DNA of 12,132 nt, taken from the NCBI GenBank assembly GCA_039588295.1, contig JBDHAB010000069.1, positions 1 through 12,132 on the forward strand. The letters run 5' to 3'. The notes below the pieces were generated by a model. The model searched no databases. It had not been told where the DNA came from and worked only from the letters and a program-made list of their open reading frames with translations. Origin of the DNA: Gemmatimonadota bacterium (GTDB taxonomy: Bacteria > Gemmatimonadota > Gemmatimonadetes > Gemmatimonadales > GWC2-71-9). Below are positions 1,808 through 11,885 of this stretch, piece by piece (within the stretch, counting starts at the first letter, position 1; the number at the start of each line of letters is the position of its first letter). A program made the position numbers and the translations under genes.

Positions 1808-2419
1808 ATGCGTCTCTTGCCACGGACCGAAGAGTTCTTCGACCTGTTCACGGAAGTGGCGCGGCGGTCGTACGAAGCCGCCGGCTATCTCCGTGAGCTG
1901 TTTACCAGCCCGGAGCGATTAGCCTACTGCGTCGAAAGCATCAAGCGCCTCGAGCACGAGGCGGACGAAATCACGCAAGATGTTGCCAGGCGGCTCGATC
2001 GCACCTTCATCACGCCCATCGACCGCGAGGATATCTATCTGCTCGCATCGGATCTCGACGATGTGATGGACACGATCGACAGCACCGCACGCCGAGCGCA
2101 GATCTTCCGCCTCGGGACAACTCCGGACGGCATCGTCCAGATGTGCGATCTGGCGATCGCGGTCACGGGCGAGGTGGAATCGGCGGTCAAGAAGCTCCGC
2201 GGCAAGAACGATCTGATGGGGCACCGGATCGAGGTCAAGCGCATCGAGGAAGAGGCCGATGCCGTGTTTCACGAGATGCTCGGCCGACTCTTCGATACCG
2301 AGTCGGACCCCATCGCGATCATCAAGTGGAAGGAGATGTTCGACAAGATCGAGACGGTAATCGACAAGGCCGATGACGTGGCCGGGGATCTCGAGTCGAT
2401 TGCGCTGAAGCACGGCTGA
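1808..2419 (+). CDS. DUF47 family (PhoU-like) phosphate transport regulator / Pit accessory protein
   Basis: Start moved from the track's 1664 to ATG 1808 (GGAGAG at 1794-1799), giving 203 aa. Motifs FFDLF, IKRLEHEADEI, TFITPIDREDI, LDDVMD, EEEAD and IIKWKE. Stop overlaps the pit start (TGATG). Confidence 0.92.
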   Translation: MRLLPRTEEFFDLFTEVARRSYEAAGYLRELFTSPERLAYCVESIKRLEHEADEITQDVARRLDRTFITPIDREDIYLLASDLDDVMDTIDSTARRAQIFRLGTTPDGIVQMCDLAIAVTGEVESAVKKLRGKNDLMGHRIEVKRIEEEADAVFHEMLGRLFDTESDPIAIIKWKEMFDKIETVIDKADDVAGDLESIALKHG

Positions 2420-3454
2420 TGCTCGAGTCCGTCTGGTTCGTGCTCGCGATCGTGGCGGTCGCGCTCGTCTTCGACTTCATCAACGGGTTCCACGACAGCG
2501 CCAACAGCATCGCCACGATCGTCTCCACCCGCGTCCTGTCGCCGGTGGCCGCGGTGGCCTGGGCGGCATTCTTCAACTTCGTCGCCGCCTTCGGGTTCGG
2601 CACCGCCGTGGCCAAGACCATCGGCAGCGGGCTCATCGACCTCTCGATCGTCGATCCGGTCGTGATCCTGGCCGGCCTCCTCGGGGCCATCGGCTGGGAC
2701 GTCGCCACGTGGTATCTCGGCATCCCGTCCAGCTCGTCGCACGCGCTGATCGGCGGGTACGGCGGCGCGGCGCTCGCCAAGGCCGGAGTCGACGCACTCA
2801 TCCTCGGCGGCTGGGTGAAGCCGATCCTGTTCATCTTCGTGGCGCCCATCCTCGGGATGGCCCTGGGACTCGGGCTCATGGTGGGGGTGGCCTGGACGTT
2901 TCGCCGTGCCAGGCCCGTCTCGGTGGACAAGCACTTTCCGCCGGCTCCAGTTGGTCTCTGCGGCGGCGTACAGCCTGAGCCACGGCACCAACGACGCGCA
3001 GAAAACCATGGGGATCATCGTCGGCCTCCTGGTCAGCTCCCAGCACCTCTTCACCGAGTTCCCGATCCCGGCATTTCATCTCACCACGGCCGAGGTCATC
3101 CCCACGTGGGTGATCCTCTCGGCACACGCGGCGATCGCCGCGGGCACGGCCGCCGGCGGATGGCGCATCGTCAAGACGATGGGGTCACGGCTCACCAAGC
3201 TGAAGCCGGTGCACGGGTTCTGCGCTGAAACCGGCGGGGCGATTTCGGTCTTCGTGGCGTCGGCACTCGGCGTTCCGGTGAGCACCACGCACGTGATCAC
3301 CGGCTCGATCGTCGGCGTGGGGTCGGCGCAGCGGCTGTCGGCCGTTCGGTGGGGACTGGCGGGTCGGATCGTCTGGGCCTGGATCCTTACGATCCCCGCC
3401 TCCGCGGGGCTCGGTGGGATTTGCTACCTTGGCCTCCACCTGGTGATCCGGTAG
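2419..3454 (+). pseudogene. pit: Inorganic phosphate transporter, PiT family, split by a +1 frameshift at about 2935-2939 (real lesion or sequencing error)
   Basis: First frame has FDFINGFHDSANSIATIVSTR and GIPSSSSHALIGG up to VDKHF. Second frame continues FRRLQLVSAAAYSLSHGTNDAQKTMG...GVPVSTTH...VRW...AWILTIP. Removing one base from cactttccgc gives a continuous 344-aa protein. Confidence 0.88.
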
Positions 3455-3915: not shown

Positions 3916-4248
3916 CTAGACCCCCTCGAGCGCTTCGGCTTCCGTCCTGAACACCTTGAGGATCATGCTGAACCCGGAGATCTCGAACACCTCTTCCACC
4001 GTCTCGTTCAAACCGAACATGTGCAGGGTGCCGCCCACGCCTTGGACACGCTTGGCAGTTGCCAGGAGTACTCGGAGCCCGGCGCTGCTGATGTAGTCGA
4101 CGTTCGTGAAATCGACGACGATCCTATGACCGCCACCTTCGACGATGCCATCCAACGCCTGTTGTGCCTCCGGCGATGTATTGGTGTCGAAGTCGCCGGC
4201 GAAGGCGATGAGCGAGACGTCATTCTGCGTGCGTACGGCGATGTCCAT
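3916..4248 (-). CDS. STAS-domain anti-sigma factor antagonist (SpoIIAA/RsbV family)
   Basis: Start moved to ATG 4248 (AAGGTAGGGAGG just upstream), giving 110 aa. Motifs GDFD, IVVDFTNVDYISSAGLRVLL (phospho-acceptor Ser motif) and VEEVFEISGF. Confidence 0.93.
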   Translation of the reverse strand: MDIAVRTQNDVSLIAFAGDFDTNTSPEAQQALDGIVEGGGHRIVVDFTNVDYISSAGLRVLLATAKRVQGVGGTLHMFGLNETVEEVFEISGFSMILKVFRTEAEALEGV

Positions 4249-4270
4249 AGCCTCCCTACCTTGCACGGTG

Positions 4271-4705
4271 TCAGTCGTCAGTGACCCTTTTGGCGAGCAT
4301 GACGACGTTGCGGTCGGTGCGTCGGTGATAGCTGACCTCATCCATCGCCTGTCGTACGAGGTGAATGCCAAGCCCACCTATCCTTCGCTCCTGCGTCGAG
4401 AGGAGGGTATCGGGGGGCTCCTCCCGAAAGGGATTGAAGGGCTTGCCATCGTCGGTGATCGTCACGGACAGCCGATCACCGGCCAGCTCCACGTCTACGG
4501 TGATCTCGCCGCTGTCCCGTCCTTCGAATCCATACGAGATGGCGTTGTTCAACAATTCGTCGAACACGACTCGCACGCTCCGTCGGATCTTCGCAGGGAG
4601 GTCGTGCACCTCTGCGAATTCGGCGAAGGCGGCATTGACACGGTCGATCTCAGCGAGATCGATGCCGACGGTAACGGCAAAGCTCTTGCGAATCTGGCCC
4701 TTCAT
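4271..4705 (-). CDS. RsbW/SpoIIAB-like anti-sigma factor Ser/Thr kinase (HATPase_c_2)
   Basis: About 144 aa from ATG 4705; start uncertain, no clear SD. N box DELLNNAISYG, G1 ITDDGKPFNP, G2 ERRIGGLGIHLVRQAMDEVSY. Adjacent to and co-oriented with the STAS gene. Confidence 0.9.
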   Translation of the reverse strand: MKGQIRKSFAVTVGIDLAEIDRVNAAFAEFAEVHDLPAKIRRSVRVVFDELLNNAISYGFEGRDSGEITVDVELAGDRLSVTITDDGKPFNPFREEPPDTLLSTQERRIGGLGIHLVRQAMDEVSYHRRTDRNVVMLAKRVTDD

Positions 4706-5057
4706 CGAGGCGTTCGGTAAGGGTCGGCGGAGGAAGACCTGCCTCCACAATCCGGGATCGCTGCAAGGGGCCGCGCTGTCGGACGATGCCAGCTCACTCG
4801 GAGCCCTCGATGCACGGATGGCCTACCCGGTACCTTGCAGGCGTCTTTGTGCACACCTAGCTTGGCCGGACGCACACAAGCTTTCGACTACTGAATCGTT
4901 CACCTATTCTGATCGGCTCGTCCGACCGGCGCAAGGCGAGGACGGTGCAGATTCCGTTCGGGTAGTCGGTCGGATTGACGCATTCAAGTTTCACTATGCC
5001 GCCCTCTGGATGGGGTGCCGAATGGCGTCGTCCAACCTTTGGCGTTCTGAGTTGTAG

Positions 5058-5609
5058 TTGACTGAGAGACCTGCTGCCGCGCACGAACACGACCGCGCAC
5101 TGGTCAAGCGGTGCCTCGAAGGCCAAGGGGACGCGTTTGGCGAACTCATTGATCGACACCACAAGCCGCTGTTCAATGTCGCGCTTCGCATGCTCAACAA
5201 CGTCCAGGACGCCGAGGACGTCACGCAGACCGTGCTTCTCAACGCATTCGTCAAGCTCCGGACCTACGACCCGAGGTACAAGTTCTTCAGTTGGATCTAT
5301 CGCATGACGGTGAACGAATCATTGAACACGCTCAAGCGTCGGAAGCCGACGGTGACGCTCGAGCCCAGACTCCATATGCGGGCGCCGGTGGCTGCATCCG
5401 ATAGTGCGGCGGAGTTACAGGACCGGGTCGGAAAGGCTCTGATGTGCCTGAAGCCCGACGATCGTGCCGTGGTGGTTCTCAAGCATTTCGTGTCCTTCTC
5501 CTATCAGGAGATTGCCGACGTGCTGGAGATTCCCGTCCGAACCGTGAAGTCACGCCTCTTCACGGCACGGGAACGGTTGAGGGACGCACTGCGGGAAGGA
5601 GAGCGGTGA
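5058..5609 (+). CDS. ECF (group 4 sigma-70) RNA polymerase sigma factor, SigW/RpoE-like
   Basis: 183 aa, TTG start without an obvious SD. Region 2 DRALV...AFGELIDRH...DAEDVTQ...FFSWIYRMTVN. Region 4 RAVVVLKHFVSFSYQEIADVLEIPVRTVKSRLFTARERLR. Confidence 0.95.
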   Translation: MTERPAAAHEHDRALVKRCLEGQGDAFGELIDRHHKPLFNVALRMLNNVQDAEDVTQTVLLNAFVKLRTYDPRYKFFSWIYRMTVNESLNTLKRRKPTVTLEPRLHMRAPVAASDSAAELQDRVGKALMCLKPDDRAVVVLKHFVSFSYQEIADVLEIPVRTVKSRLFTARERLRDALREGER

Positions 5610-5613
5610 GCCC

Positions 5614-6417
5614 GTGCTGAACCGGCAACAGATCGAGCTCATCCATCAGGAGATGGATGGTGTCAATGCTCCGGCAGAGCGTGCCGCGTTCAGGTCTTTG
5701 ATCGAGAAAGATTCGGAGGCCAGGGCGCTTGAAGCAGATCTGCGGAATGTCACCCAGCTCTTGGACCGTGTGGGAAGCATCGATCCACCTCGCCATATGA
5801 CGGAGGCGATTCTCAATGCTCTACCACAACAGGTTCGAGCGAGATCGCGTTGGGAAGCTCTCGGAGCGCCTTTGAAAGCCATCGTGGACGGATTTCAAAA
5901 GAGGCCCCGATTCGCCTTGGTGTCTTCTTTGTGCGTCGGCCTCGTGGCCGGATTCGTGGCATACGCCGCCTTGGCAGGCACCGTGTTGATCGATCATCCG
6001 GATACCAGTGGTCTAAGAGGCACGTTGTTCGAGCGCCGCGCGGCCGACGAGTTGGAGACGGTGCATGACGTCACGATCGACGTCGACCGAGTGAGCGGCC
6101 GCGTCGGCGTCCAGATAGCTCAGAACATCGTCTTTGTCGAACTCGAATTGGATGTGGAGCATGCGATGGAGGTTCGGTTGACCTTCGATGAGGGGGCGTA
6201 CGGCTTGCTTGGGTTTTCACAGCTGAGGAGCGAGGCGGGGCCGTACTTCACTGCCGAGCCAGGTCTCATCCGAGTCACGACGTCGGGCGCGAACACGCAT
6301 ACCTTCGTCTTGAACCATGAGGGGCCAGTGTCGCCACTGGCCTTGTCCCTTTTCGAAAACGGCGAGGAGGTCTTCGCCACGACACTTTCTGCACGAGGAC
6401 TGGACCAGGGTGGATGA
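5614..6417 (+). CDS. Putative single-pass membrane anti-sigma factor with a beta-rich extracytoplasmic domain
   Basis: GTG 4 nt after the sigma stop; 267 aa. N-terminus ELIHQEMDG...AERAAFRSLI...DPPRHMTEAILNAL follows the anti-sigma-domain helical pattern. One TM segment (FALVSSLCVGLVAGFVAYAALAGTVLI). C-terminal part has alternating beta-strand patterns. Confidence 0.8.
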   Translation: MLNRQQIELIHQEMDGVNAPAERAAFRSLIEKDSEARALEADLRNVTQLLDRVGSIDPPRHMTEAILNALPQQVRARSRWEALGAPLKAIVDGFQKRPRFALVSSLCVGLVAGFVAYAALAGTVLIDHPDTSGLRGTLFERRAADELETVHDVTIDVDRVSGRVGVQIAQNIVFVELELDVEHAMEVRLTFDEGAYGLLGFSQLRSEAGPYFTAEPGLIRVTTSGANTHTFVLNHEGPVSPLALSLFENGEEVFATTLSARGLDQGG

Positions 6418-6488
6418 CGCCATACGCGAGCATTCAATGGTTCGTTCATAGGCTGAGATTCGGCACTGAACGACTGTAAGGAGGCGAA

Positions 6489-7688
6489 ATGACCAAGAAG
6501 ACGATGATTCTCGGAGGTACCGTTTTGGCATTGGCGATCGTCATCGCCGGCATCGTGACCGGCTTTCCACCCGGGGGCGACGAAGCCGGTACGATCGGCG
6601 GGGTCGAGGAGGCGGCGCGGTACAAGGGCCGTCTTATGACCGAGGCCGACGTGACCCTCGAGAATCCCGAGGTCGCGGTGCTGTTCCAGAACGATCAGGT
6701 CCTACGCCTGGTCAAGAGCGATGTGTTCCGCGAAGTGATGCGGAGTGAGGCCTACCGGGAGCTCATGGCCAGCGAGGCCTATCGAGAGGTCATGGCCAGT
6801 GATGCCTACCGGGAGGTCATGGCCAGCGAGGCCTATCGGGAGGTCATGGCCAGTGATGCCTATCGGGAGGTCATGGCCAGCGAGGCCTATCGGGAGGTCA
6901 TGGCCAGTGACGCCTACCGGGAGGTCATGGCCAGTGAAGCCCACCGGGAGGTCATGGCCAGTGACGCCTACCGGGAGGTCATGGCCAGTGAAGCCCACCG
7001 GGAGGTCATGGCCAGCGAAGCCTACCGGGAGGTCATGGCCAGCGAGGCGTACCGCGAGATGCAGGCCAGCGAGGCCTATCGCCGGCTCCTGGCCAACGAG
7101 GCCTTCCGCGACCTGCAGGCACAAGGGGCGTTCCGCGACCTGCAGGCCACCGAAGCCATGCGCGAGCTAGAAGCCAACGCGGCGTTCCGCAACCTGCAGG
7201 CCAACGCGGCGTTCCGCGACCTACAGGCCAACGCGGCGTTCCGCGCCCTACAGGCCAACGCGGCGTTCCGCAACCTGCAGGCCAACGCGGCGTTCCGCGC
7301 CCTACAGGCCAACGCGGCGTTCCGCGCCCTGCAGGCCAACGCGGCGTTCCGCGCCCTGCAGGCCAACGCGGTGTTCCGCGCCCTGCAGGCCAACGCGGCG
7401 TTCCGCGCCCTACAGGCCAACGCGGCGTTCCGCGACCTGCAGGCCAACGCGGTGTTCCGCGACCTGCAGGCCAACGCGGCGTTCCGCGCCCTACAGGCCA
7501 ACGCGGCGTTCCGCGCCCTACAGGCCAACGCGGCGTTCCGCGAGATACAGTCCATGGAGGCGTTCCGCGACCTGCAGGCCATGGACGCGTTCCGCCAGCT
7601 CCAGGCGAACGAGGTCTTCCGATCCCTCTCCAGAAGCCAGGAGCTGTCGGAAGTGTTCATGAAGGAGGCCATGCGCATCGCGCGCTGA
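6489..7688 (+). CDS. Exported or membrane-anchored hypothetical protein with 38 tandem 9-aa repeats
   Basis: Strong SD AAGGAGG before the ATG; 399 aa. N-terminal MTKK plus hydrophobic ILGGTVLALAIVIAGIVTG. Residues 58-399 divide exactly into 38 nonamers (AS[ED]AYREVM type, then ANAAFR[ADN]LQ type). Several differences between DNA units are synonymous in this frame (agc/agt, tat/tac, cta/ctg), supporting it as the coding frame. Confidence 0.9.
   Translation: MTKKTMILGGTVLALAIVIAGIVTGFPPGGDEAGTIGGVEEAARYKGRLMTEADVTLENPEVAVLFQNDQVLRLVKSDVFREVMRSEAYRELMASEAYREVMASDAYREVMASEAYREVMASDAYREVMASEAYREVMASDAYREVMASEAHREVMASDAYREVMASEAHREVMASEAYREVMASEAYREMQASEAYRRLLANEAFRDLQAQGAFRDLQATEAMRELEANAAFRNLQANAAFRDLQANAAFRALQANAAFRNLQANAAFRALQANAAFRALQANAAFRALQANAVFRALQANAAFRALQANAAFRDLQANAVFRDLQANAAFRALQANAAFRALQANAAFREIQSMEAFRDLQAMDAFRQLQANEVFRSLSRSQELSEVFMKEAMRIAR
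6714..7631 (+). repeat. Coding 27-bp tandem repeat array with two homogeneous blocks
   Basis: Block A, about 6768-7037, unit gccag(c/t)gaNgcc(t/c)a(c/t)cgggaggtcatg. Block B, about 7173-7550, unit gccaacgcgg(c/t)gttccgc(gcc/gac/aac)ct(a/g)cag. Confidence 0.97.
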
Positions 7689-7735
7689 CGGTGAAGCGCG
7701 GGACGCGCCCGCCTGTCCAGGTTTGATTGGGCCCC

Positions 7736-7780
7736 CGCGGTGATCCCGGCTCGAGACTCACCAGAGCTGGGATCACCGCG
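7736..7780 (+). promoter_or_regulatory. Strong intercistronic stem-loop without a U-tract (mRNA stabiliser or attenuator)
   Basis: cgcggtgatcccggctc-gagactcacca-gagctgggatcaccgcg: 17-bp stem with one G-U and an 11-nt loop, between the repeat gene and the outer-membrane gene. Confidence 0.7.
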
Positions 7781-7806
7781 TACATTCTCCCCTTGGTGCA
7801 CTGACA

Positions 7807-10800
7807 ATGAATCGACTCCGATTCATGGGGAGAGTCTGCCGCGCGGGCGGGTGCCTCGGTGATCTGACCGACCCTACCCTGGGCGGGGCGGCCTTCGGAC
7901 GCATCTCGGAGGTCCTGGCGCTCCTCGCGTGCGTATGGACGTTTGCACCTTCCGATCTCGCCGGGCAGTTTCAGACGCGCGAGACCGGCAACATGCGGCT
8001 GGTGTATACCTCTCCGCTTCAATCCCACCTCGTACGCCAGGTAGGCAGAAGCTTCGAGAATTCACTGCAATTCTACCGCGACCTCTTCGAGTACACGCCA
8101 CCGGGCAAGATCAACGTGCTGATGCACGACCTGTGGCACTACGGCAACGCCGGTGCGCGTCCGGTTCCGGAAAACCACATCACCGTTGGGATTGCGCCGT
8201 ACGCCCACGTGTACGAGTCCGCTCCTGCAAACGAGCGAATGGGTTCCTCCTTCAACCACGAGATGGCCCACATCGTCACGGTGGACAAGGCTACCGCGTC
8301 TGACCGGTTCTTCCGATCGGTGTTCTTCGGCAAGGTCACACCCAACGCTGAAGAACCCCTGTCCATGCTTTACAGCTACCTGACCACGCCACGGTGGTAT
8401 TCACCGCGGTGGTATCTGGAAGGGATCGCGGTGTATCTGGAAACGTGGATGAACGGGGGATTGGGACGCGTCATCGGCGCCTACGATGAGATGGTGTTTC
8501 GCACCCTCGTGCGTGACAGCGGCACCATCTACGACGTCGTCGGGTTGGAGTCGGAAGGAACGACCATCGACTTCCAGGTAGGAGTGAACTCCTACCTCTA
8601 CGGAACGCGCTTCATCAGCTATCTGGCTCTTCAATACGGAAACGACAGCCTGCTGGCATGGTTCAATCGCACGGAAGGCAGCAAGAGCTACTTCTCCAGG
8701 CAGTTTCGGGAAGTGTACGGAAGATCGCTCGAAGACGAGTGGTCGCGATGGATCGAGTGGGAGCGAGAGTGGCAGCGAGCCAACCTGGAGGCGATCAGAC
8801 AGAACCCGACTACCGCATTCCGCCCGCTCACGGAGCAAGCACTTGGATCGGTGTCTCGGGCGTATTTCGACTCGTCGAATCGGAAGATGTACGTGGCTGT
8901 TCGGTACCCAGGGCAAGTCGCCCACATCGCCGCGATTGACCTCGAGTCGGGTACCCTCGAACCTGTGAGGGAGGTCCTCGGCGCATCTGGATTCTACGTG
9001 ACTGCCTTGGCGTTCGATGCAACATCGAGGACCCTGTTTTACACCACCAACAACGCCGATTGGCGTCACCTCGTCGCGTTGGACTTGGAGACCGGTCGGT
9101 TCGAGGTCCTGCTCAGGGACGTGCGGGTTGGCGATCTCGTCTTCAACCCAGCGGACCGGTCGCTCTGGGGAGTCCGGCATGACAACGGGTGGTCGACATT
9201 GGTCCGCATCCCGCCTCCCTACGAGGAGTGGAATCAGATCCAGACCTTACCCTACGGGGAGGATCTGTTCGACCTGGATATCTCGCCGGACGGATCGATC
9301 CTGATCGGCTCGATGTCCGAGATTAGTGGTCGTCAGCGGCTGGTGAAAATGGACGTGGCGGCTCTCGTGGAAGAACGTGAACGGTACGGTGATCTACCAG
9401 ACACCACCTACGAGGTCCTAACCGACGAGTTTGATGTTTGGCCACCGTCGAACTTCGTGTTCTCCCCGGATGGGCGGTACCTGTTTGGTTCCTCCTATAA
9501 GTCAGGTGTCTCCAACATCTTCCGCTATGACTTGAACGCGGACACCCTGGAAGCCCTGAGTAACGCGGAGACCGGCTTCTTCAGACCAGTCCCCGTATCC
9601 GACGACTCCGTTGTCGTGTTCCGGTATACCGCCCGAGGATTCGTCCCGTCGATGATCCCGAACCAGGTCCCCGACAGCGTGAGCGCGATACGCTTTCTGG
9701 GCAACGAGATTGCCTTTGAACGGACCGTGGTGCAGTCATGGGAGCTGCCGTCCGCTTCGCGCATCAACCTGGACTCGCTCACGACGTCGAGAGGGACCTA
9801 CCGGTCGCTAGGCCACTTCAAGTTGGATAACGCGTATCCCATCGTGGAAGGGTATGAGGATGCGGCCGGCACCTACGCCGTAGCCGGCGGCATGCGGTTG
9901 AACTTCTCCGATCGGATTGGCACGACGGCTCTCGACCTGAGCGCGTCGTACTCTCCCCACGGGGGCCTGGCGCCTGCTGAGCGCCTCCACCTGAGCGCGG
10001 ACTTCCACCATTGGAACTGGCGAGTATCCGCAGTCCTGAACCCAGCCGACTTCTACGACCTCTTCGGGCCCACGAAGACGAGTCGCAAAGGGTATGGGCT
10101 GGCGCTGCGATATCAGAACAACCTCTTCCTCGATGGCCCGAAGAGTCTGGGGTACTCACTGCAACTGGCGGGGTATGGCGGCCTGGAGACCGTACCGGAG
10201 TACCAGAACGTGACGGCTTCGTTCGACAAGCTCCTGTCGTTCTCCGCCAACCTCGAGTATGGATCCCTCAGGAGCTCCCTCGGGGCCATCGACCACGAAC
10301 TGGGAACCACGTGGGGTTTGACACTCCGAAGCAACTATGTCGACGGGTCGCTGTACCCCCGCCTGAACCTGGACGTTTCCAGGGGGTTCTTGCTTCCCCT
10401 GAACCACTCGTCGCTGTGGCTCAGAGGCTCGGCGGGGGCGGCGCTGGCAGGGGACCGAAACGAGCCGTTTGCCAACTTCTTCTTCGGAGGCTTCGGCAAT
10501 AATTGGGTGGACTACCGGGCCATCCGGCAGTTCCGCAACACCGAGAGCTTCCCCGGCATCGAGATCAACGAAGTCGGCGGCGCCAACTACGGAAGAGTTC
10601 AATTGGAGTGGATGTTGCCGCCCCTCCGATTTCGCCGCGTCGGGATTCCGAGCTTCTACCTCCGGTGGGCCGGGCTGTCGTTCTTCGCTACGGGCCTCAT
10701 GACCAACGTCGATGAGGCGGTGACCCGACGTACGATCGCGAGCGTGGGCGCGCAACTCGACCTCCGATTGGTCACGCTCTCCCATCTCAACTCCACGTTC

Positions 10801-10878
10801 TCAATCGGGTTCGCCGTGACCCGTGAGCAGGGGGTCCCGCTAAGGTCCCAATTGATGCTGTCGTTCAAGATCCTGTGA
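7807..10878 (+). CDS. Large outer-membrane protein: gluzincin-type (peptidase MA-like) zinc metallopeptidase + TolB/PD40-like beta-propeller + C-terminal Omp85/BamA-like beta-barrel
   Basis: 1023 aa; exact start uncertain. Signal-like VLALLACVWTFAPSDLAG/QF. HEMAH (8257-8271) followed by PRWYLEGIAVYLE (from 8404). Propeller blades DLVFNPAD, LDISPDGSILI and FVFSPDGRYLF..S...GVSNIFRYDL. C-terminal amphipathic strands with FFFGG...GG.NY....LEW.LPPL and ASVGAQL. Confidence 0.8.
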   Translation: MNRLRFMGRVCRAGGCLGDLTDPTLGGAAFGRISEVLALLACVWTFAPSDLAGQFQTRETGNMRLVYTSPLQSHLVRQVGRSFENSLQFYRDLFEYTPPGKINVLMHDLWHYGNAGARPVPENHITVGIAPYAHVYESAPANERMGSSFNHEMAHIVTVDKATASDRFFRSVFFGKVTPNAEEPLSMLYSYLTTPRWYSPRWYLEGIAVYLETWMNGGLGRVIGAYDEMVFRTLVRDSGTIYDVVGLESEGTTIDFQVGVNSYLYGTRFISYLALQYGNDSLLAWFNRTEGSKSYFSRQFREVYGRSLEDEWSRWIEWEREWQRANLEAIRQNPTTAFRPLTEQALGSVSRAYFDSSNRKMYVAVRYPGQVAHIAAIDLESGTLEPVREVLGASGFYVTALAFDATSRTLFYTTNNADWRHLVALDLETGRFEVLLRDVRVGDLVFNPADRSLWGVRHDNGWSTLVRIPPPYEEWNQIQTLPYGEDLFDLDISPDGSILIGSMSEISGRQRLVKMDVAALVEERERYGDLPDTTYEVLTDEFDVWPPSNFVFSPDGRYLFGSSYKSGVSNIFRYDLNADTLEALSNAETGFFRPVPVSDDSVVVFRYTARGFVPSMIPNQVPDSVSAIRFLGNEIAFERTVVQSWELPSASRINLDSLTTSRGTYRSLGHFKLDNAYPIVEGYEDAAGTYAVAGGMRLNFSDRIGTTALDLSASYSPHGGLAPAERLHLSADFHHWNWRVSAVLNPADFYDLFGPTKTSRKGYGLALRYQNNLFLDGPKSLGYSLQLAGYGGLETVPEYQNVTASFDKLLSFSANLEYGSLRSSLGAIDHELGTTWGLTLRSNYVDGSLYPRLNLDVSRGFLLPLNHSSLWLRGSAGAALAGDRNEPFANFFFGGFGNNWVDYRAIRQFRNTESFPGIEINEVGGANYGRVQLEWMLPPLRFRRVGIPSFYLRWAGLSFFATGLMTNVDEAVTRRTIASVGAQLDLRLVTLSHLNSTFSIGFAVTREQGVPLRSQLMLSFKIL

Positions 10879-11885
10879 CGGTCGTCGTTGCGGTTGCGGT
10901 CAGTGTCCTACCGGTCTTTCTGTTTCTTGGGGCACTGGTTCTCATCGACAGCTATAAGCTCGTCGCACTGCGAGCGATCCTGCTCTCGGTGTTGGCGGGA
11001 GCGCTCGCCGCCCTCGCAAGCTACGGGGTGAACATCTGGCTCCGATACGCCCTCGGTCTGGATGTGGCCCGATACTCCATGTACGTGGCACCCATTGTGG
11101 AGGAATCGCTCAAGGCCACCTTCGTCATCTATCTGCTACGGTCGAGCAAGGTGGGATTTGTCGTGGACGCGGCCATCCACGGATTCGCCATCGGAACCGG
11201 CTTCGCATTCCTGGAGAACCTCTACTATCTGCAGACGAATCCCGACGCGACGCTCTGGACGTGGACCGTGAGAGGGTTCGGCACCGCAATCATGCACGGC
11301 GGCACGACGGCTATCGTGGCGATGGTCTCCAAGACGTTCCACAACCGACTCGATCGCTTCGGCCCTCACCTCCTCCTGCCGGGTCTCGGTGTGGCCGTGG
11401 TTCTGCACTCGTTGTACAACCACTTCTTGTTGCATCCCCTCCTGGCAACCGCGCTGATCGTCTTGGTCTTTCCGTACCTCAGCATCGCGGTCTTCCAGCA
11501 CAGTGAACGAGAGACGAGAGCATGGCTTGGAGCGGGTTTCGACACGGACCAGGAGCTGCTGCGGGTCATTCGCTCGGGGCACATCTCGGAGACCCCTGTC
11601 GGGAGGTACCTGAAAACCCTGCGCAGCAGCTTCCCCGCAGAGGTGATCGTCGACATGTTGTGCCTCCTGCGGTTGCACGCCGAGCTCTCTATCCGCGCGA
11701 AGGGCGTCTTGATGATGCGTGAGGCCGGGTTCGATGCCGCGCCGGATCCGAGCCTGAAAGACACCTTCGAGGAGCTGCGGTACCTGGAGAAGAGCATCGG
11801 CAGGACGGGGCTGCTCGCCATAGATCCGTTCCTCCACACCAGCACGCGGGACCTGTGGCAACTCCACATGCTCAACGAAATGTAG
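10875..11885 (+). CDS. PrsW-family glutamic-type intramembrane protease with a soluble C-terminal extension of about 130 aa
   Basis: GTG overlaps the upstream TGA (GTGA); 336 aa, multi-TM. All four PrsW motifs are present: APIVEESLK, GFAFLENLYY, RGFGTAIMH and AVVLHSLYN. Confidence 0.92.
   Translation: MTVVVAVAVSVLPVFLFLGALVLIDSYKLVALRAILLSVLAGALAALASYGVNIWLRYALGLDVARYSMYVAPIVEESLKATFVIYLLRSSKVGFVVDAAIHGFAIGTGFAFLENLYYLQTNPDATLWTWTVRGFGTAIMHGGTTAIVAMVSKTFHNRLDRFGPHLLLPGLGVAVVLHSLYNHFLLHPLLATALIVLVFPYLSIAVFQHSERETRAWLGAGFDTDQELLRVIRSGHISETPVGRYLKTLRSSFPAEVIVDMLCLLRLHAELSIRAKGVLMMREAGFDAAPDPSLKDTFEELRYLEKSIGRTGLLAIDPFLHTSTRDLWQLHMLNEM

Follow-up and report, generated by a model that had tools for sequence, protein, structure and literature searches.

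We analyzed a 12,132-nt stretch of DNA (the window), which is the entire contig JBDHAB010000069.1 of a 4.5-Mb Gemmatimonadota genome (GCA_039588295.1), and focused on the gene at positions 6489 to 7688, whose product consists mostly of tandem nonapeptides and is referred to here as the array protein. The gene lies between those for an extracytoplasmic function (ECF) sigma factor with its anti-sigma factor and those for an HExxH-motif protein and a PrsW-family protease. This cassette is a real, conserved variant of PrsW-linked ECF signaling for which the libraries and literature searched gave no matching family or paper, and the array gene likely encodes the protease-cut trigger of an unstudied envelope-signaling switch. 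The evidence comes from relatives in which the array is fused to an anti-sigma domain, from the co-occurrence of the array with the two protease genes, and from the conservation of its anchor and neck.

Fused and separate forms of the array gene

The features on which this comparison depends are as follows.

6489..7688, + strand: array protein gene, 399 aa (open reading frame [ORF] and homologues), with a basic N-terminus, one hydrophobic anchor, a conserved neck, and 38 nonapeptides
6501..6563, + strand: hydrophobic segment at approximately residues 5-25 (Kyte-Doolittle mean over 19 aa as high as 2.46), which likely serves as a type II signal-anchor
6564..6659, + strand: neck PP..GTIGGV..A.RY....D(V)L with invariant columns, proposed cleavage or docking region
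5614..6417, + strand: separate anti-sigma factor, 267 aa, with an N-terminal anti-sigma-like domain, a transmembrane (TM) helix, and a beta-rich outer domain (NF052375, E 8.7e-5, below cut-off)
6394..6488, + strand: end of the anti-sigma gene with the adjoining intergenic DNA, homologous to the linker that fused genes contain in frame and holding a Shine-Dalgarno (SD) sequence

Two samples of relatives were assembled. The close set comprised the best 120 of 164 homologues (224-2000 aa), and the distant set was obtained by scanning for the neck pattern, which gave at least 80 metagenome loci, 68 of them non-redundant (37 fused, 15 split, and 16 unclassifiable). Searching 1.84 billion representatives with a profile returned 741 matches at E <= 0.001, and the named relatives derive from metagenome-assembled genomes (MAGs) of Gemmatimonadota and one Eisenbacteria MAG. 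When the N-domain of the window anti-sigma factor was used in a phmmer search, 105 of the 107 parsed close homologues matched; the 13 unparsed ones all start with an anti-sigma domain, bringing the fused total to 118 of 120, and the remaining two have a divergent or partial anti-sigma domain. Alignment of the same N-domain to the fused proteins with hhalign gave a probability of 99.9. As judged from these matches, the array in close relatives is the outer part of an anti-sigma factor. The window protein itself starts at the anchor, has no N-terminal anti-sigma domain, and is not an anti-sigma factor. Among the close loci, the window, L027, and L028 are split in this way, and the anti-sigma factor has a TM helix and a beta-rich domain of its own (35 close clusters). 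Stand-alone forms are under-represented in the close set; their assemblies often break inside the array, as is the case for L027 and L028. When more stand-alone close relatives were sought, 20 proteins were returned, and 18 of these were already in the set. The classifiable distant loci were 15 of 52 split and 37 of 52 fused, and an anti-sigma factor of the same layout (255-282 aa) was recovered in 13 of the 15 split ones, with a tblastn match to the outer domain in one of the other two.

The window intergenic DNA reads GWMTPYASIQWFVHRLRFGTERL-stop where the fused locus L026 reads GWMSPRAILRWSVHQLKLGAEHMEEAI. In local DNA alignments with fused linkers, it gave z values of 9.6-15.1 to five and of less than 3 to six (n = 12), and it may be a decayed linker or a captured intergenic region. 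The gene-form label changes repeatedly over the sigma factor tree, with six changes for the fused form, at least three of them forced by starred branches. In the best sigma trees, the split form of the window is nested among fused forms, and the array promoter present in most distant split loci is missing from the window. Approximately unbiased tests did not reject a basal split form (p 0.36 and 0.41), and the outer domain of the window-type anti-sigma factor also occurs in distant split loci, so the rearrangement may have been either a fusion or a fission. Locus L046 (G290:C66), which groups with the window split clade (98/97), has an open frame upstream of the anchor with a different linker, possibly a second fusion.

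The hydrophobic segment corresponds to the internal TM helix of fused homologues. No lipobox Cys was found in the 40 residues before GTIG in any of 108 proteins, nor was a conserved signal-peptidase AxA site, the -3 residue being Asp in the window and Arg, Phe, or Gly elsewhere. For these three reasons, the segment is likely a membrane anchor; the sequence-only reading that preceded this analysis had called the protein exported, and membrane-anchored fits better. Hydropathy and the position of the segment in fused homologues indicate a single TM helix with an extracytoplasmic domain. The neck is the most conserved part of the array protein and is kept across phyla. The separate anti-sigma factors possess a similar G-T-hydrophobic triplet 11-20 residues past their TM helix (13/13 distant and 35/35 close), and we infer that this short motif may be a protease or docking site shared by the two proteins.

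The separate array gene of the window is preceded by the SD sequence GGAGG at 6480-6484, and a stop codon stands 4 codons 5' of its start. In all 12 close fused loci examined, an SD of -7 kcal/mol or stronger precedes the Met before the anchor, in comparison to 3% of a control set of 155 ATGs inside HExxH genes. For the distant fused loci, an SD was found in 33 of 37 versus 7 of 246 matched control windows, and the start lies 32-35 codons upstream of the neck motif in 34 of the 37. By a strict pattern, a Met before the anchor is present in 120 of 126 proteins. The GGAG(G) is translated as Glu-Glu in one clade and as Gly-Gly in others, and this differing reading points to selection on the DNA. 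The results are consistent with the fused genes likely making two products, the full-length protein and a short array protein.

Partners and expression of the cassette

The remaining members of the cassette and its candidate regulatory sites are listed below.

5058..5609, + strand: ECF sigma factor (PF04542 and PF08281 over cut-off; TIGR02937)
7807..10878, + strand: 1023-aa HExxH metalloprotease-motif protein with a PD40-like propeller match and a likely C-terminal outer-membrane barrel
10875..11885, + strand: PrsW-family intramembrane protease (PF13367, 68.5 bits, over cut-off)
3916..4750, - strand: divergent RsbW-like ATPase and STAS pair (PF13581, PF01740)
5032..5056, + strand: promoter-like motif of ECF type, CCAAC-N16-TGTA, with no other strong match genome-wide
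7736..7780, + strand: 17-pair RNA hairpin between the array and outer-membrane protein genes, likely transcript-stabilizing or attenuating

The order of the cassette is STAS/RsbW on one strand and, divergently, ECF sigma, anti-sigma, array, HExxH, and PrsW on the other. The same gene order was seen in 14 loci as far as their contigs reach, and the RsbW/STAS pair adjoins the sigma gene in 13 of the 14. In a survey of 401 genomes of the phylum, the array was present in 17 (in one only as a C-terminal piece) and the HExxH gene adjoined it in all 17; elsewhere in the 401 genomes, the HExxH gene was found once at a contig edge and once as a weak partial match. Among distant loci with at least 600 nt downstream, the HExxH gene comes next in 24 of 28, and PrsW follows in all 10 whose downstream sequence extends for 4300 nt or more. 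The ECF sigma gene stands beside the array cassette with the exception of two loci of genome G149 (L193:5639-11086 and L194:6106-10983), which are array-HExxH-PrsW units without an adjacent sigma gene and indicate that the proteases are the tightest partners of the array. A link of the array to the neighboring proteases, proposed earlier from the window alone, is thus upheld by 1:1 co-occurrence. The L194 array is apparently interrupted by a stop or frameshift.

Two matches below cut-off, to Peptidase_MA_2 (E 0.014) and to PD40 (E 7e-4), were obtained for the 1023-aa protein, whose HExxH motif is present in 36 of 37 homologues; its C-terminal outer-membrane barrel is likely as predicted from sequence. 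The EE..K, F...E, and H motifs of the window PrsW are intact, and the source genome also encodes an M50 site-2 protease (PF02163 matches).

The CCAAC-N16-TGTA motif was found upstream of the sigma gene in 48 of 52 loci. In a scan of the source genome, the cassette motif scored 32.7 and the runner-up 20.1; a regulon scan gave 17 matches of at least 13 bits versus 0-24 expected, with only the cassette site standing out. No sigma-70 promoter was found in 4600-8000. Among distant loci, the array start is also preceded by the motif (split, 9 of 15; fused, 5 of 30; unclassified, 6 of 13), and the copies in fused loci lie within the coding linker. For the RNA of 7689-7806, folding gave a z of -3.81, and z was -3 or lower in 24 of 57 loci; a search for an RNA holder returned none among the matches listed. 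From the starts, SD sequences, and promoter motifs, we infer that a short anchored array protein would be made in both gene forms and would be the main output of the cassette sigma factor.

The motif of the window abuts the sigma start, with a TTG 1 nt past TGTA (5032-5060), and three other loci have an ATG or GTG 2-4 nt past the motif. A transcript from the motif would start at or inside the sigma ORF, and the motif may drive only the downstream genes or yield a leaderless message. A second conserved bipartite motif (GCATTGC ... GTGCACGTT-like) lies between the sigma and ATPase genes of L020-L026, L031, L032, L034, and L035 and is not obvious in the window. In the gene after PrsW, a PP2C/RsbU-like N-terminus was noted by eye at L024:14404-15243 and L033:12740-13573; a gene of this type would complete a partner-switch set with STAS and RsbW. 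The rest of the window contains the end of a FloA flotillin-like gene (2-241, + strand), a TAT-signal DUF362 protein (308-1399, - strand), and a PhoU-like gene (1664-2419) that precedes a PHO4/PiT phosphate transporter split over two overlapping frames (2419-3228 and 2906-3454) by a frameshift or assembly error. The PhoU, PHO4, and DUF362 genes are not conserved next to the cassette.

Repeat units, charge, and shape of the array

The array divides into three parts around a central unit.

6660..7145, + strand: arm 1, units 1-18, acidic in the source genome
7146..7172, + strand: central marker unit 19 (Met replaces the aromatic residue at position 5), proposed fold-back turn
7173..7685, + strand: arm 2, units 20-38, basic only in the source genome, with a conserved C-cap at its end

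The ORF at 6489-7688 encodes 57 + 342 aa (38 x 9), and the last unit reaches the stop codon. Within units 3-36, position 6 is Arg in 34/34, position 5 is Phe or Tyr in 31/34, position 2 is Ser or Asn in 30/34, and position 8 is Leu, Val, Ile, or Met in 34/34; the array contains no Cys, no Trp, one Pro, and one Gly. The sequence-only reading had described the layout of 57 residues followed by 38 units, the residue preferences at positions 2, 5, 6, and 8, and the lack of Cys and Trp and near lack of Pro and Gly, and all of these descriptions agree with the counts. TRF resolved the DNA into two arrays of 27 bp (scores 484 and 707). The basic block is a DNA-homogenized unit in which a single 27-mer is present five times, and its units have lost the acidic partner of the constant Arg. 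Contigs of public sediment runs contain parts of the locus, including array pieces, at 99%+ identity, and none spans it; the exact unit count therefore rests on the source assembly. No paralogue of the array gene was found in the source genome. NCBIfam gave no match for the window array protein, and matches to the Pfam entries Plasmodium_HRP, BACK_BPM_SPOP, and LemA were rejected as low-complexity, the first two being below cut-off for this protein. A known-fold search matched none. None of the libraries searched contained a family or fold matching the array; a match to a characterized repeat family, which the sequence-only reading had named as an outcome that would speak against it, was not encountered there. 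Two distant members (P0134 and P0147) have Cys-x-x-Cys or Trp-rich units among their nonapeptides.

For comparisons across the family, 158 arrays were examined, 34 were dropped as truncated, unanchored, or duplicate, and, of the 124 complete ones, 12 were out of register, leaving 112 that were counted. These have 10-38 units (median 20), the window array being the longest. In the window, the charge totals -11 over units 5-15 and +10 over units 20-33, so the opposite charge blocks described earlier are present; their near-equality, however, is a result of the chosen borders, for the whole array has a charge of -5 with halves of -15 and +10. The window was the only one of the 112 arrays with one acidic and one basic half (<= -5 and >= +5), and the next most partitioned has halves of -11/+4. 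Both halves are within 3 of neutral in 68 of the 112, and the half-charges correlate positively (rho +0.29). In the closest relative, nine units of the C-terminal piece, which is on a separate contig and assumed to belong to the same gene, sum to -5. The earlier view of the charge partition as a functional design, for which homologues lacking it were named as contrary evidence, is not sustained by these results. We conclude from the compared sequences that the partition is a lineage quirk of repeat homogenization, providing at most extra inter-arm salt bridges in the window.

Of 1450 units, 1347 have Ser, Asn, Asp, or Thr at position 2, and position 3 accounts for 52 of the 54 prolines. N-cap residues at position 2 together with Pro at position 3 point to a helix that restarts every nine residues. 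A nine-residue period corresponds to 2.5 helical turns, and a continuous helix would alternate its hydrophobic face. An AlphaFold2 (AF2) model computed without an alignment has mini-helices throughout (pLDDT 49.5); with 115 aligned sequences (pLDDT 76, pTM 0.59), mini-helices are seen at 60-211 and the caps are confident. The period of 9, the N-cap residues, and the Pro at position 3 do not fit a heptad coiled coil. The initial proposal of N-capped mini-helices rather than a heptad coil is supported by the statistics for positions 2 and 3 and by both AF2 models, which break the helix every nine residues in the first half of the array.

A single unit with Met at position 5 marks the middle of many arrays: it is at most one unit from the center in 27 of the 43 arrays that have exactly one such unit, where 4.6 would be expected, giving arm pairs of 7/7, 9/10, 11/12, and 13/14, with 18/19 for the window. 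The closest relative likewise has its marker at unit 19. In seven distant proteins, 5 N-units and about 5 C-units flank an unrelated run of 11-12-mers. The array middle consists of tandem Pro/Asp/Gly-rich 11-mers or 12-mers, in up to approximately 19 copies, in L085, L090, L110, L071, L123, L143, and L091, and of a long helical insert in L074, L100, and L132. An interchangeable middle between two retained ends is in keeping with a fold-back that brings the caps together. On the basis of these sequence patterns, two equal arms likely fold back into a rod. A fold-back had been suggested before on grounds of charge; the equal arms and the tolerated central inserts speak for it, but charge is not its basis.

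Proposed mechanism, alternatives, and related systems

We judge the chances to be about even that the array protein is an anchored fold-back rod that the HExxH protein and PrsW cut as their dedicated substrate, with cleavage at its neck triggering release of the sigma factor. In this mechanism, the array protein would be anchored in the inner membrane and face the periplasm, its arms would pair into a rod with the N- and C-caps near the membrane, and its tip would be the variable part. The neck would become exposed when the rod changes or touches the HExxH protein; after cleavage there by the HExxH protease and/or PrsW, a site-2 protease would free the sigma factor. Fused forms would release the sigma factor directly. 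Release from split forms would proceed through the separate anti-sigma factor with the same G-T-hydrophobic motif, shielded by the array protein in the fashion of RseB. The sigma factor would transcribe the cassette, and fused loci would produce many short copies of the array protein together with some anti-sigma-tagged ones. Our best guess for the signal is envelope or outer-membrane assembly stress.

Several observations weigh against parts of this proposal. The array protein of the window has no anti-sigma domain, and its role would need an interaction with the anti-sigma factor. Four distant loci of one clade (4/28) contain a fused gene without adjoining HExxH or PrsW genes; these four are mutually similar, and a duplicate of one has unrelated genes downstream. 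Regarding the rod, the AF2 model built with 115 sequences has long helices, themselves doubtful, at 213-292 and 303-373, so the alignment-based model does not show two mini-helix arms. The marker is off-center in 16 of 43 arrays, including seven in one clade at 15/3, and 67 of the 112 arrays have no Met-at-5 marker. Overall arm lengths are uncorrelated (rho -0.13), a mirror-identity test for arm pairing was flat, and the arrays are kin, so counts among them are not independent. As for the short product, synonymous shuffling gave a p of about 0.04 only for the SD, which could be partly a by-product of Glu/Gly codons, and the promoter motif precedes the array in 0 of 15 Gemmatimonadota-type loci, the window included.

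Other explanations were considered. Rather unlikely in our estimation is an exported cargo with a reporter copy, in which PrsW would free the array protein from the inner membrane for trimming and display or secretion by the barrel-protease, and the tagged copies would report that export works. FlgM provides an analogy for a reporter of working export. This explanation accounts for the array, HExxH, and PrsW genes traveling together even without a sigma gene, for a tip that is hypervariable and accepts unrelated inserts, for the sigma-type promoter that the array itself has in 9 of 15 split loci with no other strong genomic site, and for the hairpin 3' of the array gene, as might serve an abundant product; moreover, PrsW domains were proposed to process or export cargo in the passages seen of PMC3482391. 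However, neither a secretion signal nor a cleavage site was found, the predicted barrel has no solved relative, and the clade without adjoining HExxH and PrsW genes still has an intact array.

Somewhat less probable still is an STI1-like periplasmic holdase, whose Met/aromatic grooves would bind unfolded envelope proteins for the HExxH protease and whose loading would be the signal. In the STI1 domain, short helices form a hand whose groove is rich in Met (PMC13083928, in part), PF17830 (STI1-HOP_DP) is found in 10-23% of the members of the top Atlas clusters, and six of the 68 distant proteins pass its cut-off. The window protein, in contrast, has no STI1 match, the matches in close members are weak (2/115, best E 3.4e-5), and no STI1 chain was among the fold-search matches listed; many arrays are Ala/Gln-rich and Met-poor, and equal arms are not a known STI1 property. 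The charge-driven head-to-tail filament or fixed-length periplasmic ruler put forward in the sequence-only reading is very improbable: the charge blocks are real in the window, coincide with the arms, and could add salt bridges, and a superhelical rope of short helices has a precedent in GerD (PMC11841064, in part), but the partition is confined to 1 of 112 arrays with 68 near neutral and a rho of +0.29, the C-terminal units of the closest relative sum to -5, and a range of 10-38 units fits badly with a ruler that spans the periplasm at a fixed length.

Returning to the anchored rod as a protease substrate, the mechanism if true would represent a third design of ECF signaling in diderms, with a mini-helix rod coupled to PrsW and an outer-membrane-type metalloprotease, and would include an anti-sigma gene whose internal start yields an additional product lacking the anti-sigma domain. 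Coordinates are available for the promoter motif, the internal start, the neck motif, and the turn, and the split and fused forms found in nature allow direct comparisons. Tentatively, and with a confidence well below even, we also envisage a wider multi-phylum envelope system: its ECF sigma factor would control essentially one product, an anchored fold-back rod with an interchangeable tip; PrsW and the outer-membrane protease would process or export the rod, a minority of anti-sigma-tagged copies would monitor that step, and the gene would be a two-product anti-sigma gene in which repeated fusion and fission leave the internal promoter, SD, and start codon intact.

A literature search, subscription papers aside, returned no description of the array cassette, and no such group was found in the main text and part of the supplement of the ECF re-classification (PMC7826278). 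Among the papers listed by a search, none concerned an internal start in an anti-sigma gene as judged by title and the start of the abstract. The nearest described types for the 1023-aa protein are the WD40-Omp85 and Metallo-Omp85 classes in the portion seen of PMC4104836, where the metallo domain of the latter is PF00149 and not HExxH; the barrel of the 1023-aa protein is a predicted one. The array resembles the STI1/HOP DP domain (PF17830) in its short N-capped helices with Pro at N1, and differs in having 10-38 strictly periodic units versus a six-helix hand and in being bacterial and membrane-anchored. GerD is likewise a membrane-anchored rope of intertwined short helices (PMC11841064, in part); it is, however, a trimeric lipoprotein, whereas the array has no lipobox Cys and its fold-back would be intramolecular, and no sequence match to the array was found among solved structures.

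With respect to gene logic, an internal ATG with an SD gives a full-length and a C-terminal product from SctQ/HrcQ/SpaO, and HrcQa and HrcQb are listed as separate proteins for P. syringae pv. tomato, according to part of PMC8553256. These cytoplasmic proteins are unrelated to the array, for which the short product is a prediction, and the comparison is one of gene logic only. The role proposed for the split form is that of the E. coli RseA/RseB pair, in which RseB is a periplasmic partner, encoded after the anti-sigma factor RseA, that gates site-1 cleavage (PMC8103513, in part). No sequence or fold link between RseB and the array protein was found, and the array protein, unlike RseB, is itself membrane-anchored and often joined to the anti-sigma domain in one polypeptide. 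A parallel in cassette content is the B. subtilis sigmaW/RsiW/PrsW/RasP pathway, where PrsW is the site-1 protease of RsiW (PMC10202637, in part): both have an ECF sigma gene beside that of a single-pass anti-sigma factor, a PrsW-family protease, and an M50 protease in the genome. The window PrsW and sigma factor are far below the equivalog cut-offs for the B. subtilis proteins, and the system described here differs from that of B. subtilis in its diderm host, the cassette-encoded PrsW, the 1023-aa HExxH protein, the separate or fused array, and the divergent STAS/RsbW pair.

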